64,000 bases of DNA. Origin: Gammaproteobacteria bacterium GWE2_42_36 (lineage in GTDB: Bacteria; Pseudomonadota; Gammaproteobacteria; UBA12402). The DNA is taken from assembly GCA_001801305.1 (NCBI GenBank), contig MGXH01000058.1:961-64960 (forward strand), written 5' to 3'. Positions within the stretch are counted from its first letter, which is position 1; each line of letters starts with the position of its first letter. Positions 4,802 through 51,163 of this stretch are shown piece by piece. The position numbers and the translations under genes are program-made. The notes under the pieces are model-generated. The model worked only from the letters and a program-made list of their open reading frames with translations. It was not told the DNA's origin and did not search any database.

Positions 4802-6036
4802 GTTGTTTGCTGAAGCGCAAGTGCTTGCTGCAGTGTTTCAAAAAGGCTGGATTGCGTTTGTGCGCCTGTGAGATTTTGAGTTTTAATGCATTGCATAAAG
4901 GCCTCAATAGAAACATCAGCTGTTTTGTTGAGACCTAACGTTTCAATAAATAGCGCACATTTTTCCTTCGGTAATCCGCTGTGTTGACGAATGGCTTTTC
5001 TTAAAGCTGGTAAAGGCACATGCCCTGTACGACTGCAACAAAGAGAAACTAATTTTTCGGTTAATTTGTTTAACTGTTTTGGCGGTATGTTGGGGTCACT
5101 GGTTTTCACAGCTGCAACAATAGCACCTGGCAGCGTAGCAGTTTCGCCACATAAACCTTGATAAAGCCTATGTTGCATATTTTGTAGCAATTTTCTGCAT
5201 CGGCGCCTTTTAAAATGGAACCATTCAAAAAAAACTGATTTTGGTGGTTCTAACATCATTTGACAAGCTTGTAATTGACACCGAATTCGCTCTGCTCGAT
5301 TGTGCAAAATGTCGGCTGGAATTAATTGACGATCTTTTATCGATAAAATAGCTTGCAATTCCAGGCGGCACCAATTCAACGCTTGCGCCGTACGTGCAAG
5401 AGAAGAACTCATGTCTTTAGGGTTAATTGAAACATAATTAGGTAATGTGCTTTGATCTTCAACAAGTGGGATAAGCCTAATTTCGTTAGAATCATTAGAT
5501 TTAGGGTGCTCAGCTTTTGAGGGAGTTGTAGTGGATAATTGGTTTTGTATGATGCTATGAGAAGTTTGCATCTGCGGATGTGGTGCTCGAAATAAAGCAA
5601 AATTTAATGCATTAAATAAAATATCGATAACTCTTGCTAAGGTGTTATCTGTTTTGGGGTTGGCAAAAGTTGTTTGTAGATAAGTGTATAGGCGAGAAAT
5701 CCTTGTGCAAGGATTTCTCTCTCCAAGAATGGGCAGAAATGCTGCAATAAAGGCTGGAATTTTGGAAGGTTCTATAGGATTCTTTGTAGGGGGACTAGCT
5801 GCCGGTGTCATAAAACCGCGAAGGTTATGCTCGGGTTGTTCAGAGGTTTTCATTTCGGATGCATCAACGGGTGATGATGATGGAGAAGGCTCGCCTGTTG
5901 GCGTATGCGGTAGCGCAACTTTACCTGAGGCGGTAAGGAAACCAATGCTTGTTAATAATTTTTTTTCTGCATCTGTTATGTAAGATAACCATATCTGAGT
6001 AAAATTCTGAGTAAAATCTGTATTTATAGTTAGCAT
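4642..6036 (-). CDS. Hypothetical protein with a proline-rich C-terminal tail
   Basis: The 464-aa ORF has no recognisable family. Its C-terminus (QGPPPTPQPMVVPMF) is encoded by the GC-rich patch at 4670-4800. It is convergent with, and overlaps, the 833-aa ORF. Confidence 0.55.
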   Translation of the reverse strand: MLTINTDFTQNFTQIWLSYITDAEKKLLTSIGFLTASGKVALPHTPTGEPSPSSSPVDASEMKTSEQPEHNLRGFMTPAASPPTKNPIEPSKIPAFIAAFLPILGERNPCTRISRLYTYLQTTFANPKTDNTLARVIDILFNALNFALFRAPHPQMQTSHSIIQNQLSTTTPSKAEHPKSNDSNEIRLIPLVEDQSTLPNYVSINPKDMSSSLARTAQALNWCRLELQAILSIKDRQLIPADILHNRAERIRCQLQACQMMLEPPKSVFFEWFHFKRRRCRKLLQNMQHRLYQGLCGETATLPGAIVAAVKTSDPNIPPKQLNKLTEKLVSLCCSRTGHVPLPALRKAIRQHSGLPKEKCALFIETLGLNKTADVSIEAFMQCIKTQNLTGAQTQSSLFETLQQALALQQTTQGPPPTPQPMVVPMFPEGRGATDTPRSTAAAATVKTAAPPANDALAIPVPFF

Positions 6037-31692: not shown

Positions 31693-33411
31693 ATGACAGA
31701 CAATTTTGCAGCTCTTTTCGAAAAAAGCCTAAAAGATTCCGGACTTCGTGCTGGAGATCTCGTTAAAGGTACCGTGATCAAAATCGATAATAAATTTATT
31801 TTGATTGATGTCGGTTTGAAATCAGAAGGCGTCGTTGCTATTGATGAATTTAAAAATATGCAAGGCGAATTAGAAGTGAAGGCTGGCGACGAAGTCGAAG
31901 TCGTGATCGACATGTTGGCTGACGATTACGGTGAAACACGACTTTCTCGTTTAAAAGCAAAACGCGCAGAATCATGGGCCCGCTTAGTGCATGCGAGCGA
32001 AACAGCAGAAACGGTTTTGGGTGTTATTACAGGTCGTGTGAAAGGTGGTTTTACAGTAGAGATCGATGGCGTTCGCGCATTTTTACCGGGATCTTTATTA
32101 GATGTTCGTCCAATTCAAGATACGGCTAGCTTTGAAGGACAAGCAATTGAATTTAAAATCATTAAAATTGATGAAAAGCGCAGCAATATTGTGGTGTCTC
32201 GTCGTGCGGTTATTGAAGCGGAAAATTCTGTTGAACGTTCAAAACTATTAGAAGGCTTAACCGAAGGACAAGTTATTTCAGGTACCGTTAAAAACCTAAC
32301 AGATTATGGTGCATTCGTCGATTTAGGCGGTGTCGATGGTTTGTTACATATCACGGACATTGCTTGGAAGCGTGTCAAACACCCGAGCGAATTGTTACAC
32401 ATTGGTGATTCGATTGATGTGGTTGTCTTGAAATTCGATCGAGAAAAATCTCGTGTTTCACTTGGATTAAAACAATTGCATCAAGATCCTTGGGGCAATA
32501 TTAAAGAGCGCTTCGCTGTCGGAAAGAAATTGTCTGGCAAAGTGACTAACATTACCGATTACGGTTGTTTTGTTGAAATTGCAGATGGCGTTGAAGGATT
32601 GGTTCATATGTCAGAAATGGATTGGACCAATAAAAACATTCATCCGAGCAAGGTTGTGCAATTGGGTGATGAGGTCAATGTCGTTGTGTTGGAATTAGAT
32701 GAAGAACGACGTCGTATTTCGCTGGGCATGAAACAATGCGCATCCAATCCATGGATTTCTTTTGCTGAAAAATTCAAGAAAGGCGATCGCTTGAGTGGTC
32801 ATATCAAATCCATTACAGATTTTGGTATTTTCATTGGTCTTGAAGGCAACATTGACGGATTGATTCATCTATCGGATATTTCATGGGAAGAACCCGGAGA
32901 AAAAGCGATTCGAAAATACAAGAAAGGCGATGAAATCGAAGCCGTTGTGCTAGCGATTGACCCAGAAAGAGAACGTATTTCATTGGGTATTAAACAACTG
33001 CAAGATGATGCGTTTAGTTTATATGCTGAAGCGCATCCTAAAGGAAGTTTGGTGAAAGGCAAAGTCGTTGCGATTGAAGACAAACAAGCCTTCATCGAAT
33101 TAGCGGAAGAAGTGAAGGGTCGAATTAAAGCCGCTGAAATTGCCGCAGAAAAAGTCGATGATATTAACGTGTACTTCAAAGTTGGTGATGAAGTGGAAGC
33201 CAAAGTCATTAGCGTCAATCATAAAGACCGCGTTATTGGTTTATCCATTCGCGCAAAAATGAAAGATCAAGATGGCAGTGGTCGATCAAAATCTTCAGAA
33301 GAAAGTTATGATACGATTGTCGGTGGAAAACTCGGTGATTTATTAAAACAACACATGAGCAATAACGCGACAGAAGAATCGGAGCAGGGCGAAACGGTTA
33401 ACGACGAATAG
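31693..33411 (+). CDS. rpsA: 30S ribosomal protein S1
   Basis: Starts [14 protein letters not shown] (E. coli MTESFAQLFEESLK) and has six S1 domains. Confidence 0.97.
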
Positions 33412-33437
33412 TCTTACCATTTCGAACGATAGTCTAA

Positions 33438-33470
33438 AAAGGCATGGCGTAAAAACCATGCCTTTTTTAT
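33438..33470 (+). terminator. Rho-independent terminator after rpsA
   Basis: aggcatgg-cgtaaaaa-ccatgcct followed by TTTTTT. Confidence 0.8.
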
Positions 33471-33582
33471 TAATAGATCATTGTCTCTTTTTGATGAGAG
33501 GGGCTGTTTTTCCCTCTATAGAATGTCTGTTGACGACTAACGGATTGTCAGATGGAGGCAGCGGTTCAAATAACGTGTTTTC

Positions 33583-33606
33583 TTATCCCGAACTCAGGTT
33601 ACATAA
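33583..33606 (+). repeat. Dispersed motif copy C (TTATCCCGAACTCAGGTTACATAA) in the rpsA/ychJ convergent intergenic region
   Basis: Same core as copies A and B. Confidence 0.7.
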
Positions 33607-33658
33607 GTTGAGAGAACATAAGAGATTTCTGGGCAATCGTTTAAATCGAGTAGGGTTT

Positions 33659-34072
33659 TTATTTCTTAATATTATCGCTTTTAGTGTTTAGCACATAACT
33701 GCCATTGACATACAACCAGCGCCCATTTTCGTAATGAAATTCACTCCGCTCATGAATAGATTGATTTTTTCCTCGATAATGAAATCGCGCGATGAATTCC
33801 ACATATGCTATCGTCCCATGAGGTTTTGGCGCATCAATGATTGTTAATCCAAGCCATGTTGATTCTTTAGCCCATTGTTTTGCGCTTGCCGCATCAAAAT
33901 TATGCAGAGCCTCGCCTTTCATAGTTTTAAGAATATAATCGACGTTTGTTTTAGAATAAGCAGTATATCGCGAACGCATTAACTGTTCCGGTATTTCAGG
34001 GATCTTATGATTTTCAATATATTGGCCACAACAATGAAAATACTCTTTTTTTGATCCACAAGGGCAAGGCAT
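33659..34072 (-). CDS. ychJ: SEC-C motif protein, YchJ family (UPF0225)
   Basis: N-terminal PCPCGS...CCG and C-terminal CxC metal-binding motifs. Confidence 0.8.
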   Translation of the reverse strand: MPCPCGSKKEYFHCCGQYIENHKIPEIPEQLMRSRYTAYSKTNVDYILKTMKGEALHNFDAASAKQWAKESTWLGLTIIDAPKPHGTIAYVEFIARFHYRGKNQSIHERSEFHYENGRWLYVNGSYVLNTKSDNIKK

Positions 34073-34195
34073 AGTACACTCTATTTCACATTAAGAAATT
34101 CATATTCACACCCAAGTTCAATATGTCATTTATCGCACACCTGCGCTTTTCGCGTCGACTTTGGTGGCAAGTGTAACATAGTGAAGTCGGCCTGC

Positions 34196-34735
34196 TCATT
34201 TGACAGAACCTTTTTTTGAATGCTTGGGGGCATCAAAAATTGTTAACAACGCTGTTAACAATTGCATCGGTGCCGGGGGGCACCCGGGAATGACAAGATC
34301 AACAGAAATGACATTCGATACGGCGCCAGCACTGGCATAGGATTTTCCAAAAATGCCACCACAAGCGGCGCAGTCACCGGCGGCAATGACGAGTTTAGGA
34401 TCGGGCGTGCTTTCGTAGACAATACGCAACGCTTCTTCCATATGTCTGGAGACGGGCCCTGTAACAAGCAAAACATCGGCATGACGAGGAGAAGCCACAA
34501 AGTGAATACCAAATCGCTCGAGATTATAAAACGAATTATTTAAGGCTTGAATTTCTAATTCACACCCATTGCAGGATCCCGCATCGACTTGCCGAATAGC
34601 GAGACTCCCATTAAATTTTGCGGCGATAACTTTTTGGCACGCTTTGCCTAGCGATTCGATTTGGTGAGATTCTGTTGTGTCGACCGGTTCTGTGATAATT
34701 CCGACCCGTAGAATTTTCTTCAGTGTTTTTAGCAT
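34196..34735 (-). CDS. Group-4 hydrogenase / complex-I small-subunit homologue (NuoB/HycG/HyfI-like, [4Fe-4S])
   Basis: GSCNGCELEI, GDCAACGG and IPGCPP cluster-ligand motifs. Confidence 0.85.
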   Translation of the reverse strand: MLKTLKKILRVGIITEPVDTTESHQIESLGKACQKVIAAKFNGSLAIRQVDAGSCNGCELEIQALNNSFYNLERFGIHFVASPRHADVLLVTGPVSRHMEEALRIVYESTPDPKLVIAAGDCAACGGIFGKSYASAGAVSNVISVDLVIPGCPPAPMQLLTALLTIFDAPKHSKKGSVK

Positions 34736-34747
34736 AATGATGTCACC

Positions 34748-36331
34748 TTATAAATCACATCCCGAATAAGACCCGTTAATCGATTTATTGCAAACAGGAA
34801 AATCGGGTACGATATCGCGATAAATGAGCCGTTCGAGCGCAAGCCAGTTAAACCAACTGGGATCGCGCGGAAAATAACGCGAGACTTTGCCGGTGGCATC
34901 TAAACTGACATACGTTAATAATTCGCCGCGCCAACTTTCAACAATTCCGATACCCGCGGTAGGGTATGGGGGGGGTGTCCATGTTGTTTGATAAGGACCC
35001 GATGGCAGCGTGTTCAATAAATCTTTAATCAATGTTAATGCGCTCTTTATTTCTTTCAAGCGGATGCTTAATCGTGCCGCCACATCGCCATCGGATAAGA
35101 CTGGCGAGCTCACTTCACATTGATGATAAGGGGCATAAGGAGCGTCACGTCGCACATCAAAATCGATACCACTTGCTTTACTGACATATCCTAAAGCGCC
35201 AACAGCCTGCGCTGTCTCATGAGATAAAACACCGGTAGTTCGCAATCGATTTTGTAGTGAGGCATTTGTGTCGAGAATATGCGTTAATTCGCCCACTTCT
35301 TTTTCGAGTGGCACTAATTCATGCTGCAATAAATCAATGGCAGTTGCGGATAAGTAATCTTTTTGTACGCCGCCAACCGAGAGGCAATTCATCAGTAGTC
35401 GGTGGCCAAATAAATACGCGTTGGTGCGCAGCCATAGCTCGCGCAGTCGACCAAATTGATAATAAGCAAAGGCGAATCCGACATCATTACAAATGGCAGC
35501 CACATCCCAGAGATGATTGGCGATACGTTCTCGCTCTGCCAGTATGGCTCGGATAAATAAAGCGCGATCAGGGACCGTTATTTGCAACGCATTTTCGACA
35601 GCCATGCAAGTGGACCCAGCGTAAGATAAGGTGCAATCTCCCGAAACATGAGCCGCAAGATTGATGAGGTGATGAATGTCTTTCCCCTCGGCGATTTTTT
35701 CAATACCTTTATGGACATAGCCTAAACGTTCCTCGAGATAGAGCACCTCTTCTCCGGCAATTTGAAAACGGAAATGACCTGGTTCGATAATGCCGGCATG
35801 GATGGGTCCAACCGGTACTTCGCAAACGCCTTCACCTGTCGCTTGTAAAAACGGATACGTTTTATCAGCGGGTGTTTTTCCTGTGCCATAACCCGCTGCT
35901 GGAAAATCTTTTCGTAAGGGAAATTGATTGGCTTGCCATGCTTGATGGCGTGTCCATCGGCGTGAGTCGTCGGTATCGATGAATTCTATACCGAATAAAT
36001 CGTGCGTATGTCGCTCGAATCGGTTAGCCGCCAAGTAAAGGCAAGAGAGAGAAGATAATTTTAAAGGTATTTTTTTGTTCAATGAGGTGCGCATCAATAA
36101 GTAATGTTTTTCAATGCAAAAACAAACGGTTACAAAAAAAACATCTTCTAATTCTTCAGCCCATAACCCAGCAAAACGACCCTGATCTTGTTGAATCATT
36201 TGTGCGACCGTTTGCCAATGCATCGGTTCAATCTCGAGGGCAGAGTAACCCCCTATCGAGCTATCTGCTTTGAGTAGTTGACAGTGGTTTAACGCTTTCA
36301 TTAAGCGAAGTAAAAGGTCCGATGTTCCCAT
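34748..36331 (-). CDS. Group-4 hydrogenase large-subunit homologue (NuoC-NuoD fusion, HycE/HyfG-like) with non-canonical metal-site motifs
   Basis: GPIHAGIIEPGHFRFQIAGEEVLYLEERLGYVHKGIEK matches HycE/NuoD. The expected RxCGxCxxxH reads HVSGDCTLSY, and the C-terminal DPCxxC is replaced by DFPVCNKSINGSYSGCDL. Confidence 0.8.
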   Translation of the reverse strand: MGTSDLLLRLMKALNHCQLLKADSSIGGYSALEIEPMHWQTVAQMIQQDQGRFAGLWAEELEDVFFVTVCFCIEKHYLLMRTSLNKKIPLKLSSLSCLYLAANRFERHTHDLFGIEFIDTDDSRRWTRHQAWQANQFPLRKDFPAAGYGTGKTPADKTYPFLQATGEGVCEVPVGPIHAGIIEPGHFRFQIAGEEVLYLEERLGYVHKGIEKIAEGKDIHHLINLAAHVSGDCTLSYAGSTCMAVENALQITVPDRALFIRAILAERERIANHLWDVAAICNDVGFAFAYYQFGRLRELWLRTNAYLFGHRLLMNCLSVGGVQKDYLSATAIDLLQHELVPLEKEVGELTHILDTNASLQNRLRTTGVLSHETAQAVGALGYVSKASGIDFDVRRDAPYAPYHQCEVSSPVLSDGDVAARLSIRLKEIKSALTLIKDLLNTLPSGPYQTTWTPPPYPTAGIGIVESWRGELLTYVSLDATGKVSRYFPRDPSWFNWLALERLIYRDIVPDFPVCNKSINGSYSGCDL

Positions 36332-36334
36332 GCG

Positions 36335-37804
36335 CTATTGTCCTATAAAAAGAGATGCCGCTTGTTTTAGAATTTGCATGAAAAATGACGGGATATAGAG
36401 CCCCAATATTAAAACGATCAAGAGATGCAGCCCGGCGGGGACCAAATTGATTTTTGCAATGGGAGGCGTGGGATACGCCGTTTTGTCTGGATTACCTAAT
36501 GCCATCGATTGCATGTATCGCAGTAATGCTGCAAAAACAACCAGAAATCCAAGGCCGAGAATGATGGCTAAATAGGGATCCGTTTGAAGAGTGGCTAAAA
36601 ACACACCGACTTCACCGATGAACAACCCAAAGGGTGGCGCGCCGGCAATAGCAAATAAAGCGACGATCAAAAGCCACCCAACCCATGGATTGAGCTTTAA
36701 TAAACCCCGAATTTTTTCGATTTTTTGAGTGTGCGTTAAATGCATGACATTACCAACCGTCGTGAAAATCGCCGATTTAATGAGTGCGTGAATAATCAGG
36801 TAAAACAATCCGCTCAAAATAGCAACCGCATTGCCGAGGCCGAAAGCAAACGTCATGATGCCCACATGTTCGATGGACGAATAACTAAACATGCGCTTAA
36901 TATTTTGTTGATGATGCAGGGTGAGGCTGGCAAAAACGAAGGATAACAAACCGAAAACAATCATTAAGTGGTTGGCGAGGCCATTTTGCAGTGACAGATT
37001 CGTCAAAATTTGAAAACGCAATAAGGCGTATAATGCGACATTCAATAATAATCCCGACAATAAGGCGGCGACAGGTCCGGGACTTTCTGAGTAAGCATCT
37101 GGCAGCCAAAAATGAAAGGGCACTAAACCAGCTTTAGTTCCGTAGCCCACAAATAAAAACACAAAGGCTAGTATCATGATCGAAGGGTTTAATGTTTTTG
37201 CATGCAGCGCCAACGCATTCCATAGTATGGCATGACTGGGATCGAGGGAAGTTTGTGCCGCAAAGTAGATTAAAATGGTCCCGAATAAAGCCAATGCGAT
37301 GCCCACGATGCAAATAATAAAATATTTCCATGCAGCTTCAATGGCTTCGGGGGTTCGATAAAGGCTGACTAATAATACCGTTGCCAAGGTCGCTCCTTCA
37401 ATGGCTACCCATAAAAGGCCGATATTGTTCGCCGAAAACGCAATGAGCAACGAGAAGATAAATGACTGGTAAAATAAATGATACAACTGTAATCGTTTTA
37501 AGGTGATACGGCGTTCTTGCAGATTTTGCAACATGTATCCATACGAAAATAAAGCCGTTGTCATACCGATGAACGTGGTGAGCGTCCAGCCGATCAGTCC
37601 GAGTGCGTCGAGATAAAGTTGCTCGTGTGCATGCAAAATAAAAAATGAAGGCGTCGTTTGCCAACGCATCAACAGTAGAATCATGGCAATAAAATTGACA
37701 GTCGATATGAACAAATTGATGCTAACTGCCCATCGCGCTTTTCGGATAAAGCTGAATAAAATAATACCGAGCAGAGGGGTGAGTAAAATAGCATAAAAAA
37801 TCAT
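36335..37804 (-). CDS. Antiporter-like membrane subunit (NuoN/NuoM/HyfF-like)
   Basis: The 489-aa multi-TM Mrp-antiporter-type subunit has a start that overlaps the upstream stop (ATGA). Confidence 0.8.
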   Translation of the reverse strand: MIFYAILLTPLLGIILFSFIRKARWAVSINLFISTVNFIAMILLLMRWQTTPSFFILHAHEQLYLDALGLIGWTLTTFIGMTTALFSYGYMLQNLQERRITLKRLQLYHLFYQSFIFSLLIAFSANNIGLLWVAIEGATLATVLLVSLYRTPEAIEAAWKYFIICIVGIALALFGTILIYFAAQTSLDPSHAILWNALALHAKTLNPSIMILAFVFLFVGYGTKAGLVPFHFWLPDAYSESPGPVAALLSGLLLNVALYALLRFQILTNLSLQNGLANHLMIVFGLLSFVFASLTLHHQQNIKRMFSYSSIEHVGIMTFAFGLGNAVAILSGLFYLIIHALIKSAIFTTVGNVMHLTHTQKIEKIRGLLKLNPWVGWLLIVALFAIAGAPPFGLFIGEVGVFLATLQTDPYLAIILGLGFLVVFAALLRYMQSMALGNPDKTAYPTPPIAKINLVPAGLHLLIVLILGLYIPSFFMQILKQAASLFIGQ

Positions 37805-38526
37805 AGTTCAGTCCCTTCTCGTAATCGATTGAGAGAATCGACATCTAAAGAATCAATGCTAGTATTTAAATGAAAGAAAAATACGCCGAATAAAATAATC
37901 GCAACGAGCACGTCGAACGCAATACCCAACTCGATTTTCATTGGCATACCGCGCGTTAAAATCAGGGCGGCAAAAAAGATTCCATTTTCAATGACCATAA
38001 AGCCGAGTGCATGCGAAACCGCTTTTCGGTGCGTGATAATGAGCAACATGCCGAGTAAAATAATCGAGAGTGCAATGGCGATGGCATTGCTGCTGAATAA
38101 TTGTGTTGAGGTTCGTAGGGAATGGGTCAGATTGTACGAAAACAAGACCAAAGCACTTGCAATCATCGACAGTAGAAAGGGCCGTGCAACGAGAGAGGTG
38201 GCGTTATCCGATGGGTTTTTTGATGATAAGCGATGTGATAAATAACGTAAAAACCAGGGGATAAAAATGACTTTTAAGGCAAAGATCAGAAGCGCCGAAA
38301 AAAATAAATCCCATTGATAGGGCGTGATAAACGAAGCGGCTAAAGTGGCTAAACTTAAAAAAGCGCTTTGCCAGGCGTAAGTATAAATCATGCTGTCGAT
38401 GCGTCGCTGAATTAACAGAATAAAGGTTGTTAACAGCAAGAGCGCGGACAATAATAGTTGAATGGCATTAGCGTTCACAATTAAGCGACCTCCGCGATCA
38501 CATGAATCAAAAGGCCTAATAAACAC
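37801..38526 (-). CDS. Small membrane subunit (HyfE/NuoK-like)
   Basis: The 241-aa polytopic ORF sits in hyfE position. The true start is possibly GTG at 38478, right after the upstream stop. Confidence 0.65.
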   Translation of the reverse strand: MFIRPFDSCDRGGRLIVNANAIQLLLSALLLLTTFILLIQRRIDSMIYTYAWQSAFLSLATLAASFITPYQWDLFFSALLIFALKVIFIPWFLRYLSHRLSSKNPSDNATSLVARPFLLSMIASALVLFSYNLTHSLRTSTQLFSSNAIAIALSIILLGMLLIITHRKAVSHALGFMVIENGIFFAALILTRGMPMKIELGIAFDVLVAIILFGVFFFHLNTSIDSLDVDSLNRLREGTEL

Positions 38527-39428
38527 AACAAAAAAGCCATATTCAGCAGGAGCGGGACACGGAATAGTCGTAGTTTAGCCAAGTGGGTTTCAGCTAATAC
38601 CAACACCCATGCAAGCAGTAGGCATTTGATGATCACGATGCCACCATTCAATCCGATTGCCGATAAACTCAGCTGATTGATGAGTGGGAACGGCAGAAAT
38701 AAATTCGCAAAAAGTATTGTGTAAATCAGTAATTTAATTTGAGCGGCCCATTCGATGAGTGCTAAGTGTCGTCCGCTGTATTCTAAAATCATCGCTTCGT
38801 GAATCATCGTGAGTTCTAAATGAGTCGCGGGATTATCGACAGGAATGCGGCCGGTTTCAGCGACGGCGATCATCGCAAAAGCAAGCGCCACAAATAACAT
38901 CGACGGATTAAACCATAAGCTGTGTGTGCTTAAATAAGTGGTGATGATGTCGAGACGTGTGCTGGAGGCCATCATGGCTAGAGAAAAAAACGCAATCATC
39001 AAAGCAGGTTCAGCCAATGTTGCAACAGTCATTTCGCGAGAAGCACCCATCCCACCAAAACTGGTGCCGATGTCGAGTGCGGCGAGCGCTAAGAAAAATC
39101 GACTCAAACCAAATAATCCCGCAATTAAAATAACGTCCGTAAATCCAACAGTTTGTGAAGGGCTGACGATAAAGGGAATTGCCGAGGCGATCAACGCAGT
39201 GATGCTGAAAATCAAATACGGTGCAAATCGAAAAATCCAAGAGGCGTGATGTGCCAGGATCGTTTGTTTATGAAATAATTTTCTCAAATCGCGATAACAC
39301 TGAAAGACAGAAGGCGCACTGCGATTTTGCAGCCAGCATTTGAACATTTTCACGATGCCAACAAAGAGCGGCGCGATGAAAACGAATAATCCCGTTTGTA
39401 GTAAACTGTATAATAGGCGATTCATCAT
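38481..39428 (-). CDS. NuoH-like membrane subunit (HycD/HyfC, formate hydrogenlyase subunit 4-like)
   Basis: Multi-TM ORF whose start ATG overlaps the upstream stop (ATGA). The ORF-track start at 39503 is probably too far upstream. Confidence 0.8.
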   Translation of the reverse strand: MMNRLLYSLLQTGLFVFIAPLFVGIVKMFKCWLQNRSAPSVFQCYRDLRKLFHKQTILAHHASWIFRFAPYLIFSITALIASAIPFIVSPSQTVGFTDVILIAGLFGLSRFFLALAALDIGTSFGGMGASREMTVATLAEPALMIAFFSLAMMASSTRLDIITTYLSTHSLWFNPSMLFVALAFAMIAVAETGRIPVDNPATHLELTMIHEAMILEYSGRHLALIEWAAQIKLLIYTILFANLFLPFPLINQLSLSAIGLNGGIVIIKCLLLAWVLVLAETHLAKLRLFRVPLLLNMAFLLCLLGLLIHVIAEVA

Positions 39429-41431
39429 GAGACTAACCACAGTAAAATAATCAAAGTCACAAACATATAGGTTAAATAAAGGCGTAAGTGGCCGCTTTGC
39501 CATTTAGCGATATGTTGGCTGATCGTTTTTATGCCGATTCGCCAAGGTTTATAAAACCATTCCCACGACCAATCGTCAGTATGCAATGCGTAATGTACGG
39601 ATTGTGTTTGATAAGGTTGATGAAGCGAGGGTCTGCGCTCTTGTGTTTCAGTGATTTTCCAAAAAGCCTGAAAAATTCGGCGGATTGGCATGGCAAAAGC
39701 GGTGCCAGTGTATTGCATGCGTTCGGTTAATCCACCAAAACCGCAATCCCAAGGGGAAACTAATTTATATTTTCTGGGATGCCACCAAAAATAAACGAGG
39801 CTTGTGATGAAAAGTAAGGCGATAAAAACACCAAGTCCCGAATAGGCCGTTTGTTGTACGGAAATCGGTGTTAACCATAACCAATTCCCGGAGGCGGGCA
39901 AGGCATAACCGATGCTTTGCTCTGCAATCGTATTCAGATGCGCGAGCGTGAATGACGGAAATAATCCAAAAAACAAACAACACGACGCCAGTAAGGCCAT
40001 CGATAAGCGCATCGCACGTGGCGCCTCATGCGCCGTGTGCATAGAGATGCTACGTGCTTTACCTAAAAAAATCATCCCATACGTTTTGACAAAACAAGTA
40101 GCAGCAAGAATGCCCGTTAAGGCTAAAATGGCGGCCGCTAAGGGAATTAAGATGCGCAATAATCCATTCGCTAATAACGAAGATTGCAAAGCGGTTTGAA
40201 AGGTTAACCATTCCGACACAAATCCATTGAAAGGCGGTAAGGCCGAAATGCTTAAACAGCCGATTAAAAAATAAAAAGCCGTGCGAGGCATTTTATGAAT
40301 GAGCCCCCCCATGTGTTCTAAATCATGTTCATGTGTTTGCTGAATTACACTACCCGCGCCTAAAAATAAGAGGCTTTTAAATAACGCATGATTTAAACAA
40401 TGATAAAGCGCAGCCAACAAACCCAGTGCTGCTAAAAGTGGATGGTTCGTCGCTTGAAAAATAAGCGACAATCCTAAACCAATAAAAATAATGCCAATAT
40501 TTTCGACTGAATGATAGGCGAGCAGACATTTGACGTCATGCTGCATGATTGCATACAGCACGCCGATCAAAGCAGAAATCGTGCCGATGAATAAAACAAC
40601 GCCGCCCAATGGCCAGAGATTGCCGATTGTTAAAAAGTAAAAACTTAGCCGAATAAAACCATACACTGCAATTTTTAACATAACGCCCGACATCAAAGCA
40701 GAAATCGGTGAGGGCGCAACGGGATGGGCTTTAGGTAGCCAAGCATGAAGTGGCACGAGCCCCGCTTTTGTCCCAAATCCCCATAAGCCTAAAATAAAAA
40801 TAACGCTTGTCCATGTCGGCGAAAGATGAAGATGAGTGAATGTGTTAAAATTCAAGTTCCCGCTCCATTTCGCCAACAATCCAAAACTGATCAGAATGCA
40901 AATCCCACTCATTTGCGCCATCAATAAATAAATAAAAGCGGCTTGGCGATTCGTTTCATGCTCATGTTCATGCGCGACGAGAAAATAACTTGATAATGAC
41001 ATCAATTCCCAAGCCAATAAGAAAATAAAGACATTGTTGGCGAGCAGAACGAGTAGCATGCTGCTCATAAATATAGCGGTGAAGAAACATAAATATTTTT
41101 TATGCGGAATGGATTGGATATAAGCCGGCAAATAAATAGCAACGGCAAAACCCACTAAACCGACAATAAAAAAGAAATAGCCGGAAAGTGTATCGAGTTT
41201 TAGTTGTAGCGATAACATGGGCAAAACAGATAATGGAATTGTTTGAGAGTATTCAGGTGCGGCGTTGAGCAAAGCGAGACAACCGGCTACCAATGCGCAA
41301 AGACTGCCGAGCATTAACAAACCGGCATTGAGTCGAGAAAATAATTTTTGATACGCACACGAAAAGAGCAGAGGTAAAAGCCCTGAAAGAAAAATTATCG
41401 CGATGGATAATGTGGCTAATCGTAGTGCCAT
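39425..41431 (-). CDS. NuoL-like antiporter membrane subunit (HyfB/HycC-like)
   Basis: The 668-aa ORF shows the antiporter-module signature (WLPKAHPVAPSPISALMSGVMLK). Confidence 0.85.
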   Translation of the reverse strand: MALRLATLSIAIIFLSGLLPLLFSCAYQKLFSRLNAGLLMLGSLCALVAGCLALLNAAPEYSQTIPLSVLPMLSLQLKLDTLSGYFFFIVGLVGFAVAIYLPAYIQSIPHKKYLCFFTAIFMSSMLLVLLANNVFIFLLAWELMSLSSYFLVAHEHEHETNRQAAFIYLLMAQMSGICILISFGLLAKWSGNLNFNTFTHLHLSPTWTSVIFILGLWGFGTKAGLVPLHAWLPKAHPVAPSPISALMSGVMLKIAVYGFIRLSFYFLTIGNLWPLGGVVLFIGTISALIGVLYAIMQHDVKCLLAYHSVENIGIIFIGLGLSLIFQATNHPLLAALGLLAALYHCLNHALFKSLLFLGAGSVIQQTHEHDLEHMGGLIHKMPRTAFYFLIGCLSISALPPFNGFVSEWLTFQTALQSSLLANGLLRILIPLAAAILALTGILAATCFVKTYGMIFLGKARSISMHTAHEAPRAMRLSMALLASCCLFFGLFPSFTLAHLNTIAEQSIGYALPASGNWLWLTPISVQQTAYSGLGVFIALLFITSLVYFWWHPRKYKLVSPWDCGFGGLTERMQYTGTAFAMPIRRIFQAFWKITETQERRPSLHQPYQTQSVHYALHTDDWSWEWFYKPWRIGIKTISQHIAKWQSGHLRLYLTYMFVTLIILLWLVS

Positions 41432-41728
41432 GGTTTTTGTCTATCATTGATTACGCATCGGGCTTGCTGACCACCCGTCTCAAGCAATGCGATTTTTTTA
41501 TCTTTTGTCTGTGTTCCATGCCGGCATTTTTTATCTTACACGATGGGAGCACCCTCAAATTGTGCGTAATAATCTCACTTGAACGATTGGAATGCAAGAA
41601 GTGTCAAGGATTGAGTGATGAAATGGCGCTTAATCTCTCAATTCTTATCAGAAGCATATTGCGTTTCATGGGGTAACCGTTAGAATAGCGCGCAATTTTA
41701 ATTAGACTTAAAAAACACATAAAATATC

Positions 41729-42628
41729 ATGCGAATACGATTATTTATTTTCACTTTCATCCTGGCATTTGTTGGATTGAGTACCGCTGTATGGGCCGAT
41801 TCTTCTAATACTGTTGGGTTGCAAAATAAGCTCAACAGTCCGTTGTCGGAATGGTTTCCGTATTGGAAAGAAAAAAATATCATGCCGATCAGTTTCTATA
41901 AGGAATCCTATGTGTTACCCGCTTATTTTGAATCAAAGGATCCATTTTATAAAGGCAGTACATCAGATAATAACAACATCAAGCGTATCGAATTTAAATT
42001 TCAATTTAGTTTAAAGGTTCCGATTTGGGCCAATATGTTTAATGCGCCTTTTACTTTCTATGGCGCTTATACCCAGTTATCTTTTTGGCAAGCCTATACC
42101 GGTTCACCTTTTTTTCGCGAAAGCAATTATGAACCAGAATTATTTTTTAGTTATGATGTGGATCATTTATTGAGCCATGATTGGCAGATCAGCACAATTA
42201 ATAGCGGTGTTGTACATCAATCGAATGGAAGAGGTGGGGAGTTGGAGCGCTCTTGGAACCGTGTTTATGCACAAGCTATCTTTGATCGCAATGAGGATTG
42301 GGAAGTGGGTGTGAAGCCTTGGTGGGTTATTCCGGGCGCTTCTATGACAAAACATAATCGAGATATTACCAATTATTTAGGGCATGGATCCTGGTTTGTT
42401 GCGTATAATTTCGCGCATCAACAACAGCTCATGTTGGAATCACGTAATGACGTCGAAAGTGGATTTCGTCGAATGGCTAACCAACTGACTTGGTCATACC
42501 CGTTAACGCAACAGATTCGACTCTATGCGCAATACTTTACGGGTTATGGTCAAAGCTTGATTGAATATAACCATCGTATTAGTGCAGTTGGCCTAGGCTT
42601 TTCATTTAATACCGCGCCGACGTTGTAA
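41729..42628 (+). CDS. pldA: Outer-membrane phospholipase A (PldA/OMPLA family)
   Basis: Signal peptide and the catalytic-region motif VHQSNGRGG (OMPLA active-site HxSNG). Confidence 0.85.
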   Translation: MRIRLFIFTFILAFVGLSTAVWADSSNTVGLQNKLNSPLSEWFPYWKEKNIMPISFYKESYVLPAYFESKDPFYKGSTSDNNNIKRIEFKFQFSLKVPIWANMFNAPFTFYGAYTQLSFWQAYTGSPFFRESNYEPELFFSYDVDHLLSHDWQISTINSGVVHQSNGRGGELERSWNRVYAQAIFDRNEDWEVGVKPWWVIPGASMTKHNRDITNYLGHGSWFVAYNFAHQQQLMLESRNDVESGFRRMANQLTWSYPLTQQIRLYAQYFTGYGQSLIEYNHRISAVGLGFSFNTAPTL

Positions 42629-43376: not shown

Positions 43377-44387
43377 TTAGGATTCCATCGATTCGTTGTA
43401 TTGTCCTAAACTGGCGGCGCTATTTAATTGAGCACGCTTTAATAAAGCTTGTTGAGCCGCTGCGATATTTTCTGGTTTGCCTTTCCATGTTTTCAAGCAA
43501 GCTTCTTGCAAGGCGCGCGCATAAGAAAAGCTGAGTGACCAAGGTTGGTTGCCTTGTTGATTGATGCGATTGAGGTGTGCAGTTGCTGTTTTATCTGATT
43601 GACCACCTGATAAAAAATTAATGCTGGGTACAGCGGCCGGAACGGTTCTTCTTAAAATGCGTACAGTCATTTTGGCCGCTTGATCGACGGTGGCTTGTGA
43701 GGGGCAAGATTTTCCTGCGATGACCATGTTGGGTTTGAGCAGTATGTATTCGCATTGCACGTTATATTGAAACAGTGCCTTAAATACAGCGCGTTGTACT
43801 TTTTCGGTGACTTCAGCGCATTGTTCGATTGTGTGATCGCCATCCATTAACACTTCAGGCTCGACGATAGGAATGATCGATAAATTTTGACAAATTTTTG
43901 CATAGCGTGCCAGTAACATTGCGTGGGTTTTGATTAAGATCCGAGAAGGATTTGTTCCAGAAATTGGGTAAACAGCGCGCCATTTGGCAAATTGGGCGCC
44001 TTGCTTTTTATATTCCGCTAAACGTTCTGGTAGTCCGTCAAGACCTTGCGTAATTTGTTCTTCGGATGAGCTTTCAAAAGGAACGAGCCCTTTGTCGACT
44101 TTAATGCCGGGGATAATACCTTTTTGAGCGAGATAAACAGGAAAAGGCACGCCTTGCGCCGTTTTTTGTAGGAGCGTTTCTTCAAATAAAATAACGCCAC
44201 TCACCTGTTTTTCTAAGTCAGGCGTCGTAAATAATAGCTCTCGATAAGCGCGGCGATTTTCTTCCGTGCAATCGACTTGCACGGCCGCAAAACGTTTTTC
44301 AATGGTTTTTGAGCTTTCGTCGGCAGCGAGGAGTCCTTTTCCCTTTGCCGTGAGCGACTTAAGTGTCGTGGCCAGTGTGTTGTTCAT
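43377..44387 (-). CDS. Fructose-bisphosphate aldolase, class I
   Basis: Starts MNNTLATTLKSLTAKGKGLLAADESSKTIEKRF. Start set at the internal ATG (44387); the ORF-track extension is unlikely. Confidence 0.85.
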   Translation of the reverse strand: MNNTLATTLKSLTAKGKGLLAADESSKTIEKRFAAVQVDCTEENRRAYRELLFTTPDLEKQVSGVILFEETLLQKTAQGVPFPVYLAQKGIIPGIKVDKGLVPFESSSEEQITQGLDGLPERLAEYKKQGAQFAKWRAVYPISGTNPSRILIKTHAMLLARYAKICQNLSIIPIVEPEVLMDGDHTIEQCAEVTEKVQRAVFKALFQYNVQCEYILLKPNMVIAGKSCPSQATVDQAAKMTVRILRRTVPAAVPSINFLSGGQSDKTATAHLNRINQQGNQPWSLSFSYARALQEACLKTWKGKPENIAAAQQALLKRAQLNSAASLGQYNESMES

Positions 44388-45201
44388 GATAAGCGCTTCC
44401 TTTTGCTGAATGAAAAAACGGTTGTATTTTCTTGAGAAACGGTTTGAAGAATTTCGGATTAGCGGCCACAACGTGTCCCTGTTTGAAATAATCTTCACTG
44501 CCTTGGAAGTCGCTGATCAATCCACCCGCTTCTCGAATGATTAATGACGCGGCAGCCAAATCCCAAATTTTTAATCCTAATTTCCAGTAGCCATCCAAAA
44601 TACCGGCCGCCACATAGACCAAATCGAGCGCAGAAGAGCCGCTGCGTCGTATGGCTAAGCATTCTTTTGAAATAGCATGATAAGATTGATAATAACTCTC
44701 GTGCCACTCCGGCTCAGCGGGTGAAGGTGTTCCTGTTCCAATTAAACAATCTTCCATGAGATGTCGTCCACTGGCGCGAATTCGACGGTTACTTCGTTGT
44801 GCGCCTTCCCCCCGTGAAGCAGTAAATAAATCATCGCGAACGGGATCATAAATAACGGCGTGTTCAATGCGTCCGCGATAGCTTAATGCAATGGAAACGC
44901 AAAAATGAGGAAATCCGTGAATAAAATTAACCGTGCCGTCGAGAGGATCAATGATCCACTGATAATCGCTAGACAGGCCTAGTTTTCCGGCCTCTTCACT
45001 TAAAAAACAGTGATTAGGGTAGGCTGTTTGTAAGGTGTGAATGATGGTTTCTTCCGACAAACGATCAATATCCGTGACGAAATCTTTGTGTCCTTTCTTT
45101 TGAACGCGTATCAAGTCGGGGCGAGTGTAACCACGCATAATCGCATTGCCGGCATTTCTGGCTGCTTTGACGGCAGTTGTGACGAAAGGATGTAGGGCCA
45201 T
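44359..45201 (-). CDS. suhB: Inositol monophosphatase SuhB
   Basis: WIIDPLDGTVNFIHG and related IMPase motifs. Confidence 0.9.
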   Translation of the reverse strand: MALHPFVTTAVKAARNAGNAIMRGYTRPDLIRVQKKGHKDFVTDIDRLSEETIIHTLQTAYPNHCFLSEEAGKLGLSSDYQWIIDPLDGTVNFIHGFPHFCVSIALSYRGRIEHAVIYDPVRDDLFTASRGEGAQRSNRRIRASGRHLMEDCLIGTGTPSPAEPEWHESYYQSYHAISKECLAIRRSGSSALDLVYVAAGILDGYWKLGLKIWDLAAASLIIREAGGLISDFQGSEDYFKQGHVVAANPKFFKPFLKKIQPFFHSAKGSAYHEQHTGHDT

Positions 45202-49214: not shown

Positions 49215-49828
49215 TTGAATTCTCCTTATGTTCCCTTGTGTAAAAAAATAGGCTGTCTATCTCAACTTGTGGATGGACAGCCTTAACTTGATTTAGCATC
49301 CGTTTTTATTATTTTTTCTTCCTGTATTTTTATTATTGTTATTATTATTTTTAATATTATCTTGACGGCTTACGCCACCGATGATACTTATATTTTTTGT
49401 CACGGGTGATTTGGGATTAGCTATAGCCAATCTTGAATAGAGCATCGCATCACCGTGCTTTGTTCGGCTAGGTTTTTGCTTTGCAAACATTCTGTTTTCT
49501 CCATGACAAATTTTTTGTATCCGAATCGGTAACGATTCCTATTCACTTTGGCTTCAGACAACCTGTTTAGCTCTCGAGGCCGCATTTGTTCTTGTTTTTA
49601 TCCGCACCCCGAAAAGCTTAGGCTGGTTAAGCTGCGTGCATAGTAAGCTTTGCGTAAAACATGTTCAACTAGACGGGTTCTCAATTGAAAATATGCATTG
49701 CTAATCATATATTATATTTATAATGTAAATTACTGTATAAATTCACAGAGTAAAATCGTATAATAAAATTATTGCGTTTCATCATTTTAATGTTACGATA
49801 ATTTTGATTGGTAATTGGAGGTGTTTAT

Positions 49829-51163
49829 ATGGATCAAACTTTAGGCGCTCATGTCGAAGAGATGACTTGGAAGAGCGCGAGAAAATACGCTGCCAAAGGA
49901 GATCAAGACCTTTTTAAGATCTTAGACGAAATCAACCCGTCTGACCAATATACCTTATTACGTGTTCGTTATCCCTATGGAACGATTATTCTGAATGATG
50001 ATGCCATCTATATTCCCATAGGGAACCGAAGTGTTCCATTGTTTGATCCGGAAGTGCCGCAAAAGATTAAAGAAAAATTAGGTTATCGATCGGTCCCTTT
50101 CGGATTGATCACTAAAAACCCTGTCGAAATATATCTCGAAACAGATGATCGTGTTTTTTCGGTTGAGCTATCGGGGCCTAATAAAGGAATCGAGTTGGGT
50201 ATTTTTGAATATTTTGGATTGACGCCTTGTTATTCAGCTTCTTCCGGCGCCAGGTCTTTGTTTATGATCCCTAAAATTTCTGAAACGCGTCATCATAGAA
50301 AATTAATGAAGTCTTATCATCTTAATTGCGCACAACCTAAAAATATTTTTAAACAATGGCATGTTTTTAAAGCCCTTTATAATAGCCCTAATTTTCAGAC
50401 GCCATGGGAATCGGAAGTATTGTATTTAAGCAAAGCATGGGATGATGGTTTAACTAAATTCAAAAAAAAATCGCCGGCATGGGAGAATTTGGAAAATTAT
50501 CTTTACAAGAAAGGCTTTGAACATTCCGAGTTGGGGCGAAGAAAAGTAGTGCTCGATGTATTGTGGCGAAAAGTATTATCTATTCTTGAGGAAGATGGGT
50601 TTAAACCCGATATTTATGCGATGGATACGCTCAAACATTTAATTTATCTTTTTTTAGGGGGCGTGTCTGGCAGTCGTCCTCTTGTTGATGATTATGCGGG
50701 GCCCATCACAGAATTTCAAAAAATTTATATTGAAGAATACGGTCTTAATCAGATCCCCACGATTATGGGTCCGTATCGATTTTCATTGGAAAAAAACATT
50801 CCGGTTTATTATTCCATGCAATATCCTACGATGATTTCATCCAATCCCAGTGTGAGAAAAGTTCAAACGATCATTGAAGAGATGCGAGAATTGATGATGA
50901 TCAAATCCGCGTTGGCGCATAGTTTTGGTAATATAAAAATTAATAATATGAGATTGCATGAAATTATTCAGTCGATGAAGCTTGAGTTTTTTCATGGGGA
51001 GCTTTTTCGTTATGGTAAGGAGATTCGTCCCACCTCTGAAATACCCTTGAGCGATAAAGATTTTTTATATATGCCTACTAAAAAGAATCAATTGAAATTT
51101 GCTGATAATGGTTCTTTTATCAGAGGATGCATAAAAATTTCAACGTATAAGGATAAGCTTTAA
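49829..51163 (+). CDS. Hypothetical protein (about 445 aa), AT-rich context
   Basis: A GGAGGTG RBS precedes 49829 and no family was recognised. It is preceded by a roughly 300-bp very AT-rich region. Confidence 0.5.
   Translation: MDQTLGAHVEEMTWKSARKYAAKGDQDLFKILDEINPSDQYTLLRVRYPYGTIILNDDAIYIPIGNRSVPLFDPEVPQKIKEKLGYRSVPFGLITKNPVEIYLETDDRVFSVELSGPNKGIELGIFEYFGLTPCYSASSGARSLFMIPKISETRHHRKLMKSYHLNCAQPKNIFKQWHVFKALYNSPNFQTPWESEVLYLSKAWDDGLTKFKKKSPAWENLENYLYKKGFEHSELGRRKVVLDVLWRKVLSILEEDGFKPDIYAMDTLKHLIYLFLGGVSGSRPLVDDYAGPITEFQKIYIEEYGLNQIPTIMGPYRFSLEKNIPVYYSMQYPTMISSNPSVRKVQTIIEEMRELMMIKSALAHSFGNIKINNMRLHEIIQSMKLEFFHGELFRYGKEIRPTSEIPLSDKDFLYMPTKKNQLKFADNGSFIRGCIKISTYKDKL

Follow-up and report, generated by a model that had tools for sequence, protein, structure and literature searches.

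What does a hydrogenase-like membrane complex do when most of the cysteines that would hold its Ni-Fe centre are gone? The question is raised by a six-gene operon in a 64,000-nucleotide stretch (hereafter the window) of contig MGXH01000058.1 from 'Gammaproteobacteria bacterium GWE2_42_36', a groundwater metagenome-assembled genome (MAG). An earlier note, made from the sequence alone, had read the operon as a group-4 hydrogenase-like complex, possibly of the energy-converting hydrogenase-related (Ehr) type, and had thought it notable in a bacterium of apparently intracellular lifestyle. We find that the operon almost certainly specifies a complex of the Hyq/Ehr family (also 'hyfBCEFGI'), a six-subunit complex-I-like membrane assembly that, judged by its closest relatives, descends with near certainty from group-4 hydrogenases of the formate hydrogenlyase (FHL) type. 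The complex cannot be a canonical [NiFe] hydrogenase, because the Ni-Fe centre, the HycF/NuoI-type subunit and the dedicated electron-input modules have been lost. For its function we favor, at somewhat less than an even chance, a reversible redox-coupled ion pump.

Subunits, conservation and family of the complex

Six open reading frames (ORFs) run in tandem on the minus strand (41431-34196) in the order HyfB-, HyfC-, HyfE-, HyfF-, HycE/NuoCD- and NuoB-like; we call their products HyqB, HyqC, HyqE, HyqF, HyqG and HyqI (Table 1). Reading of the junctions, together with Pfam and NCBIfam matches, bears out the gene order and the two ATGA start/stop overlaps of the earlier note, which fall at B/C (39428-39425) and E/F (37804-37801). 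The hyfC-like gene starts at 39428 and not at the longest-ORF start 39503, and the hyfE-like gene starts with GTG at 38478, a 225-aa call that agrees with public assemblies. HyqB scores 763 bits against the NCBIfam model NF005086 'hydrogenase 4 subunit B' (cut-off 667) and matches NDH_I_L over its full length, and the best HyfF model gives HyqF 537 bits (cut-off 543). HyqG contains Complex1_30kDa, NiFeSe_Hases (only the N-terminal 67 positions) and Complex1_49kDa domains, and is identical to GenBank OGT10009.1, annotated as 'hypothetical protein' on a 212-kb scaffold. The HyfB/C/E/F/G/I-like labels therefore stand. The label 'NuoK-like' for the HyfE-like subunit does not: HyqE matches the HyfE model with E = 3.5e-23 and 82.6 bits, under the cut-off of 136, has no solved homologue by phmmer or profile search of the PDB, and aligns with E. 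coli NuoK with a non-significant hhalign probability of 0.28.

We interrogated HyqG for the residues that bind nickel and iron. In a phmmer search of solved structures its top match is E. coli HycE (7z0s_E, E = 3.6e-57), and the hidden Markov model alignment pairs RVCGICGFAH of HycE with HVSGDCTLSY, and DPCYSC with NGSYSG. Rather than all four Ni-Fe cysteines being conserved, three of the four are missing: the first Cys of the L1 motif of canonical group-4 [NiFe] hydrogenases (Hyc/Hyf/Ech/Mbh; HydDB 4a-4i) is Ser, leaving the L1 pair of Ni-Fe cysteines incomplete, and in place of the L2 motif DPCxxCxx[H/R] residues 521 and 524 are Ser and Gly where HycE has Cys. The L1 change had been reported exactly in the earlier note, and the alignment to HycE confirms its lost ligands. 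The replacement of DPCxxC...[HR] by DFPVCNKSINGSYSGCDL is likewise correct; however, the 'altered Cys spacing' seen there marks no metal site, as Cys525 is sporadic and Cys514 is present in 70% of members.

These losses extend to the whole family. The L1 consensus is R-V-S-G-D-S/T-T-V-A-H/Y, with no Cys at either ligand position, and the four Ni-Fe positions are occupied by Ser (95%, position 230), Ser/Thr (233), Ser (99%, 521) and Gly (100%, 524). In the 79 members compared, HyqG does not vary at D232, D510, F511, P512, N515, K516, S517, Y522, G524 or D526, and N519 and S521 are found in 78 apiece. Across the family the hydrogenase-type loop HAGIIEPGHFRF is likewise invariant. The copy in the window departs from the family-conserved residue at R228H. 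Cys233 and Cys525, sporadic substitutions in the family, occur together only in this lineage, and for that reason we rejected the pair as a replacement metal site. Thus, HyqG is predicted to keep a strongly conserved, polar, cysteine-free pocket at the place of the former Ni-Fe site and of the complex-I quinone head group. An AlphaFold2 model of HyqG, built from a 22-sequence alignment, has a mean pLDDT of 77.8, with values below 50 at residues 145-150, 152-208 and 505-527. Foldseek with this model returned HycE as the top match (TM 0.85) and also recovered NuoCD; the PDB searches (Foldseek library to April 2026) yielded no structure of the Hyq/Ehr family, the best match having 26% identity.

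In contrast to the large subunit, the small subunit keeps its ligands, as had been noted. HyqI Cys55, Cys58, Cys122 and Cys152 lie within AGSCNGCE, GDCAACGG and PGCPP, are in register with the cluster cysteines of MbhJ (6cfw_J, E = 1.7e-35) and of the next match HycG (E = 3e-32), and are 100% conserved (71 of 71 members). This four-cysteine pattern is that of a proximal [4Fe-4S] cluster, and HyqI is predicted to carry one N2/proximal-type cluster, the single one of the complex. For A. caulinodans HyqI, Cys55, Cys58, Cys152 and a further cysteine printed as Cys112 were reported (PMC3357923); the third cysteine of the window protein and its relatives is residue 122.

The membrane subunits retain the residues expected of ion channels. 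E142, K222, K253, H344, H348, K352 and E407 of HyqB, whose best solved relative is HycC (7z0s_C, E = 1.4e-71), are kept in at least 95% of members (n=62). HyqC, closest to HycD (7z0s_D, E = 3.4e-40), has many invariant acidic residues, and HyqE has two invariant glutamates, E164 and E183 (225-aa numbering). HyqF is closest to MbsH (6u8y_H, 6.5e-33), then to MrpD, with the conserved channel residues E136, K224, H339, K343 and E398. Together, the two antiporter-like subunits, the NuoH-like subunit and the HyfE-like subunit hold a full set of proton-channel residues. All subunits with solved relatives are closest to chains of E. coli FHL-1 or of MBH/MBS; compared with FHL, the Ni-Fe site and the two ferredoxin subunits are gone from the complex, and a second antiporter-like subunit and HyfE have been gained or kept.

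No partner or maturation genes accompany the operon. A Pfam scan of 46 other ORFs in the window turned up none that encodes a hyp or hycI product, a formate dehydrogenase, HycB/HyfA or NuoI/HycF, in line with the absences listed in the earlier note. One ORF with 2x[4Fe-4S] motifs does exist, which that list had missed: a six-frame motif search found just this one ORF of the CxxCxxCxxxC type in the window, on the plus strand, with Fer4_5 and a C-terminal 2x[4Fe-4S] dicluster domain. We take its product to be NapH/YccM-like and membrane-bound. We rejected it as a NuoI/HycF partner because it is 19 kb from the operon, on the opposite strand, and 20 bp upstream of a gene for a pyridoxal-phosphate-dependent (PALP) enzyme.

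A scan of one genome per species returned at least 591 loci, of which we examined 80 (40-55% identity); the large subunit has thousands of relatives. The order B-C-E-F-G-I is found in every long-enough locus of the 80, with no gene inserted between G and I, and a ferredoxin-type subunit (NuoI/HycF/HyfH) is missing from the module in all of them. The earlier suggestion of an Ehr-type, Ni-Fe-less complex without a ferredoxin subunit thus holds for the whole family. Carriers include Methylobacter, Methylocaldum and other Methylococcales, Thiogranum, Marichromatium, Thiotrichales, Acidithiobacillus, Gallionellales, Zetaproteobacteria, Nitrospirota (the same module at 43-48% identity), Azospirillum, Mesorhizobium and other Alphaproteobacteria, rhizobia and Cupriavidus, and the module is also present on 97 plasmids and chromids. 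With tblastn, the match in Rhizobium leguminosarum has 39% identity over 99% of the query (2e-95) and that in Azospirillum brasilense 47% (1e-110). The R. leguminosarum plasmid has the same gene order, annotated hyfB / NuoH / hydrogenase-4 component E / hydrogenase 4 subunit F / NuoC / NuoB-family, with a small helix-turn-helix gene that precedes and overlaps hyfB. Alphaproteobacterial large subunits have 504 aa with Cys491 and Cys497, and the small subunits have Cys55/58/152, in agreement with the published description (PMC3357923). The three cysteines described as conserved in alphaproteobacterial HyqG do not extend to the whole family: 70% of its members have a counterpart of Cys258 and 70% one of Cys491, and 24% have one of Cys497.

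Both names apply to the window operon. Ehr is defined by homology to group-4 hydrogenases without Ni-Fe ligands (PMC6349859, PMC10284858, PMC12342949), and we find hydrogenase/complex-I-like modules, including antiporter-like subunits, together with a large subunit that lacks the Ni-Fe cysteines. Hyq is recognized here by the B-C-E-F-G-I order, the HyqI cysteines and the relation to the copies of genera named as carriers, Rhizobium and Azospirillum among them (PMC3357923). HyqR and NifA/sigma-54 control, which are not found here, we treat as accessory and not structural. 'hyfBCEFGI' operons have been described in Cupriavidus (PMC2864759), Acidithiobacillus (PMC7735108, PMC3826726) and Nitrospira (PMC5596200). 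Cultivable carriers include C. necator (H16_A2196-2201), C. metallidurans (Rmet_4666-4671), R. leguminosarum and Methylobacter. Hence the rarity implied by the word 'notable' is not borne out: with this many loci, published as Hyq, hyfBCEFGI or Ehr (PMC3357923, PMC7735108, PMC10284858, PMC12342949), the copy is an ordinary addition to a common family.

We also asked whether the operon could be a decaying, functionless relic of an FHL operon. Deviations from family-conserved residues are commoner in this copy than in most members (R228H in HyqG is one), HyqF deviates at 16 of 128 family-conserved positions (K265Q, H238Y and D301N among them), and there are no partner genes. However, the six ORFs are intact and translationally coupled, the channel and cluster residues are kept, and the module is conserved across phyla. 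In comparison with a relative that comes from another metagenome and is 77% identical (locus L085), the ratio of nonsynonymous to synonymous substitution rates (dN/dS) is 0.034 for E, 0.044 for F, 0.139 for G and 0.108 for I. This purifying selection effectively refutes the relic, to which we give next to no credence. Invariant channel residues and cluster ligands, together with a dN/dS of 0.03-0.14, indicate that the complex is functional, and the operon is a divergent but working lineage variant. The substitutions in HyqF, which was compared with L085 852-2315, look like lineage-specific remodelling. Identity to L085 is 95% for HyqE and 92% for HyqF, which are membrane subunits, and 77% for HyqG and 83% for HyqI, which are peripheral.

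Candidate functions of the complex

Hyq/Ehr complexes are among the most widespread relatives of complex I whose function is still unsolved; for Nitrospira Ehr it was stated to be unknown in 2023 and again in 2025 (PMC10284858, PMC12342949). Published views conflict, with the genetics of one laboratory leading to a hydrogenase and sequence classifiers and expression data leading away from one. Any mechanism must fit the ferredoxin-less module that is invariant across phyla, the cluster cysteines, the channels and the cysteine-free pocket.

The redox-coupled ion pump would work as follows. Ferredoxin, flavodoxin or another soluble carrier of single electrons would dock on the face of HyqI/HyqG that HycF/NuoI would otherwise cover and exchange electrons with the single [4Fe-4S] cluster. 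The cluster would in turn exchange electrons with a substrate that occupies the former Ni-Fe pocket; a membrane quinone/quinol is the most plausible one. This redox step would be coupled to proton or Na+ movement through HyqC, HyqE, HyqF and HyqB. Aerobes may profit from the opposite direction, in which the proton-motive force would drive electrons from quinol to the low-potential carrier. We infer that the partner is a generic carrier encoded elsewhere than in the operon. In the locus flanks, which are variable and total 1.33 Mb, no partner gene is conserved, and the sole ferredoxin-type sequence is one fusion to a small subunit in Methylibium.

This fusion belongs to a second kind of module. 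Some Nitrospirota, Zetaproteobacteria and Methylibium carry a divergent Hyq-like module (30-44% identity) in tandem with the first. Its large subunits have also lost the Ni-Fe cysteines in the two that we inspected (L035 and L073); the one in L035 reads RVSGTSSFAH and ...NKSFNLSYSGTDM. The Methylibium paralogue (L073) has a small subunit in which an N-terminal 2x[4Fe-4S] ferredoxin-like domain, with the sequence elements CESGCQACVSVC and CVLCGDCGPVCP, is fused to the NuoB-like domain. The fused domain may be a built-in substitute for the lost HycF/NuoI subunit, and the fusion implies a place for the small-subunit cluster in a path of electron transfer.

Several points weigh against the redox-coupled pump. 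Members of the FHL/MBH branch, on which all subunits fall, do not use quinone. HyqC has no phmmer match to NuoH chains at or below 1e-5. The Tyr that is a quinone ligand in complex I (E. coli NuoCD 'IEYLGGC') stands opposite a gap at 'HVS--GDC' of HyqG, and the segments of the HyqG model with low pLDDT are the pocket-forming ones, so that no pocket geometry can be read from it. The SulP transporter genes next to ~17 of the 80 loci hint at a role in ion or anion transport. Finally, the only experiments, three genetic papers from one laboratory, point to Hyq-dependent H2 uptake and evolution in Azorhizobium (PMC2650096, PMC2930871, PMC3357923).

On a rival explanation the complex is the 'endo-hydrogenase' of these papers (Ng 2009, Ciccolella 2010 and Sprecher 2012, from the Ludwig laboratory), a hydrogenase of new chemistry. 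HyqG/HyqI would oxidise or evolve H2 at a site without cysteines, and electron exchange with ubiquinone would be coupled to the translocation of protons. In Azorhizobium caulinodans, hyq deletion mutants grow poorly on N2 and the operon depends on NifA (PMC2650096), H2 is released only from nodules of hup/hyq double mutants (PMC2930871), and Hyq-dependent H2 evolution was reported below 1 uM O2 (PMC3357923). The family-wide invariance of the ex-active-site pocket and of its hydrogenase-type loop would suit such an enzyme. However, no thiolate is present at any of the four Ni-Fe positions in the family. A. caulinodans HyqG (504 aa) lacks both CxxC motifs, and its own authors rate the Ni-Fe site 'uncertain, if not unlikely' (PMC3357923). 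The catalytic subunit of Acidithiobacillus scores as a non-hydrogenase in HydDB and its subunits were undetected in H2-grown cells (PMC7735108), Nitrospira Ehr is not induced by H2 (PMC12342949), and the window holds neither hyp nor hycI. We regard H2 turnover by Hyq as improbable.

The flanks bear on two further explanations. Their sole recurrent neighbour, which is not in the window, is the SulP transporter (Sulfate_transp and STAS domains), present as one or two genes directly upstream of hyqB on the same strand, at a distance of 120-410 bp, in Methylococcales and Rhodocyclaceae-type loci. This adjacency could reflect a functional link to anion or bicarbonate transport. In three loci, again unlike the window, a RuBisCO-containing cluster is near the module, and the A. 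caldus copies adjoin carbon-fixation genes and a beta-carbonic anhydrase gene (PMC3826726).

The complex might be a redox-independent, Mrp-like cation/proton antiporter or pump, with the cluster only as a structural element or redox sensor and the peripheral arm as a regulatory cap; in some hosts it might energise the adjoining SulP-type anion/bicarbonate transporter. Loss of the ancestral hydrogenase's modules for electron input and for electron output fits this idea, as do the antiporter-like subunits, which are nearest to Mrp, MBH and MBS and, in the lineage comparison, more conserved than the peripheral subunits (92-95% versus 77-83%), and the SulP, RuBisCO and carbonic anhydrase neighbours. 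In contrast, the absolute conservation of cluster cysteines, pocket and loop exceeds the needs of a structural role, the ferredoxin fusion of the Methylibium paralogue argues for electron transfer, and no SulP gene adjoins the window operon or most loci. We therefore consider an Mrp-like function unlikely, though worth weighing.

Energy-coupled CO2 hydration or inorganic-carbon uptake, like that of cyanobacterial NDH-1MS/CupA or DAB, would have the polar pocket act on CO2/HCO3-. Autotrophs and methanotrophs (Methylococcales, sulfur and iron oxidisers, Nitrospirota) are enriched among the carriers, and the same SulP, RuBisCO and A. caldus neighbourhoods would fit. The conserved pocket, however, has no Zn-type ligand set, no carbonic-anhydrase-like neighbour is conserved, many carriers are heterotrophs (rhizobia, Azospirillum, Burkholderia), and the neighbours in the window are only housekeeping genes, which makes this function very improbable.

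Apart from the redox-coupled pump in its general form, two specific activities would carry wide consequences, and we hold it quite doubtful that the family has either: activation or evolution of H2, as the Azorhizobium genetics suggests, at a pocket of invariant Ser/Asp/Asn/Lys/Tyr residues that is free of cysteine and lies beside the single cluster or, less radically, a quinol:ferredoxin/flavodoxin reductase driven by the proton-motive force. If true, the former would add to the hydrogenases a fourth class with a new chemistry, and the latter would be a long-sought enzyme of aerobic diazotrophs, nitrifiers and methanotrophs. With the window, the known carriers grow by one from a gammaproteobacterial lineage of groundwater; because this host is uncultured, the copy does not ease testing, and the question of the family is no more tractable for it.

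Surroundings of the operon and the host

Table 1 Positions of the operon, its motifs and other features; coordinates refer to the window unless a related locus (L number) is named
Feature	Coordinates	Strand	Basis or remark
hyqB/hyfB-like, NuoL/HycC-type antiporter-like subunit with C-terminal extension, 668 aa	39425..41431	-	NCBIfam NF005086
hyqC/hyfC-like, NuoH/HycD-type membrane subunit, 315 aa	38481..39428	-	Pfam NADHdh, E = 1.1e-36
hyqE/hyfE-like, small polytopic membrane subunit, 225 aa, GTG start	37801..38478	-	NCBIfam HyfE model
hyqF/hyfF-like, NuoM/N/MrpD-type antiporter-like subunit, 489 aa	36335..37804	-	NCBIfam HyfF models
hyqG-like, fused NuoC-NuoD/HycE-like large subunit, 527 aa	34748..36331	-	Pfam domains
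L1 remnant HVSGDCTLSY (compare RxCGxCxxxH)	35621..35650	-	Sequence and alignment
C-terminal motif DFPVCNKSINGSYSGCDL (in place of DPCxxC...[HR])	34751..34804	-	Sequence and alignment
hyqI-like, NuoB/HycG/MbhJ-type small subunit, 179 aa	34196..34735	-	Pfam Oxidored_q6, E = 1.5e-32
HyqI cluster Cys codons	Cys55 34573-34571; Cys58 34564-34562; Cys122 34372-34370; Cys152 34282-34280	-	
Upstream intergenic region, presumed promoter	41432..41728		Sequence read; divergent pldA-like gene on far side
YchJ-family gene (SEC-C motif and NTF2-like)	33659-34072	-	123 bp downstream of hyqI
ORF with Fer4_5 and 2x[4Fe-4S] domains, 219 aa	60577-61236	+	Pfam; six-frame motif search
PALP enzyme gene	61257-62246	+	
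Second Hyq-like module	L035 1-4419; L040 12072-16815; L073 1-2875; L078 4222-4755		
Ferredoxin-fused small subunit of Methylibium, 254 aa	L073 2111-2875	+	
SulP gene upstream of hyqB	L002, L004, L007-L009, L012, L015, L030, L034, L050, L053, L061, L070, L072		

A YchJ-family gene follows hyqI on the same strand (Table 1). It is not a seventh gene of the operon, because none of the 80 loci has it there, nor does L085, in which the genes downstream are a 190-aa ORF without assignment, a hybrid-cluster protein and a Crp/Fnr regulator. A scan of 33400-41900 for promoter and terminator consensus sequences gave counts at chance level, no sigma-54-type promoter was seen by eye in the region upstream of hyqB, and that region of the window has no HyqR-type regulator and no nif link. 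Rfam and tRNA scans found no element near the operon, and its GC content is that of its surroundings.

In other carriers, a histidine kinase and sigma-54 regulator pair flanks the module (Methylobacter) and DUF2490 lies downstream (several loci); neither is in the window. Large upstream ORFs in Azospirillum-type loci were rejected as spurious high-GC antisense ORFs.

The 46 other ORFs scanned are housekeeping genes, including kdpA, ndk, rlmN, hisS, bamB, der, gyrA, cmk, rpsA, pldA, fba, suhB, iscS, iscU, rpoS-like, gmk, mutS, recA and recX, and some orphans. The longest ORFs for a class-I fructose-bisphosphate aldolase (43377-44498, minus strand) and, upstream of it, a suhB-like inositol monophosphatase (44359-45201, minus strand) overlap by 140 bp; the true start of the aldolase is probably later, since its Pfam match begins at residue 42.

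An intracellular lifestyle of the host is not established. RecA has 80-86% identity to a broad, mostly environmental set of Gammaproteobacteria, with two Methylophilaceae among the closest named matches, and so many lie in this range that RecA is uninformative for finer placement. A literature search found no paper that mentions the MAG. Several large ORFs have no or weak Pfam matches: 2300-4801 (+), 4642-6036 (-), 16359-17911 (-), 23616-26250 (+) and 49808-51163 (+). HEAT repeats occur among the weakly matched ORFs; a 612-aa ORF has a weak OTU-like match (E = 3.6e-4), and its 245-aa neighbour matches Peptidase_C80. Such orphan ORFs, some with eukaryote-like domains, could encode secreted effector-like proteins, the only hint of a host-associated life.

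Comparison with known systems

The closest known counterpart is hyqRBCEFGI of A. caulinodans, described as a 'core (6 subunit) version' of complex I (PMC3357923). Hyq of Azorhizobium, other rhizobia and Azospirillum has the same six genes in the same order, a NuoC::NuoD fusion without CxxC and no NuoI/HycF, and the C-terminal motif NKSxNxSYSGxDL is common to the window copy and those of Rhizobium and Azospirillum (39-47% identity). The window operon differs from the Azorhizobium type in having no HyqR gene, no nif link, a large subunit of 527 rather than 504 aa and a host that is an uncultured groundwater gammaproteobacterium. 'Ehr' is a broader term that takes in larger complexes with a link to Mrp and a NuoI-like subunit (Geobacter Ehr, Mbx/MBS), whereas the window operon is of the minimal six-subunit type.

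Among solved structures, E. coli FHL-1 (HycBCDEFG-FdhF, 7z0s), with Hyf/FHL-2, is closest for HyqB, HyqC and HyqG, and the beta1-beta2 hydrogenase-type loop is common to both. FHL has the four Ni-Fe cysteines, HycF, HycB, FdhF, the Hyp maturases and HycI, which the window operon and the window lack; conversely, the operon has HyfE-like and second antiporter-like subunits that FHL-1 lacks. MBS/Mbx of Pyrococcus furiosus (6u8y) is likewise a Ni-Fe-less descendant of group-4 hydrogenases that has kept an Fe-S chain and an ion-translocating module. It has 13 subunits, including the NuoI-like MbsN and an Mrp module, is fed by ferredoxin and reduces polysulfide. Our searches matched only its chains H, J, L, M and X, and its large subunit is more weakly similar to HyqG (2e-24).

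With respiratory complex I, the operon shares homologues of NuoB, NuoC-D, NuoH and NuoL/M/N, an N2-type cluster and conserved channel residues. The gene cluster has no NuoEFG, NuoI, NuoA, separate NuoJ/K or quinone-ligand Tyr of NuoD, and it is thus no complex I. Nor is it an Mrp antiporter: MrpA/D-like folds are common to both, but here they are joined by NuoB-, NuoCD- and NuoH-like subunits.

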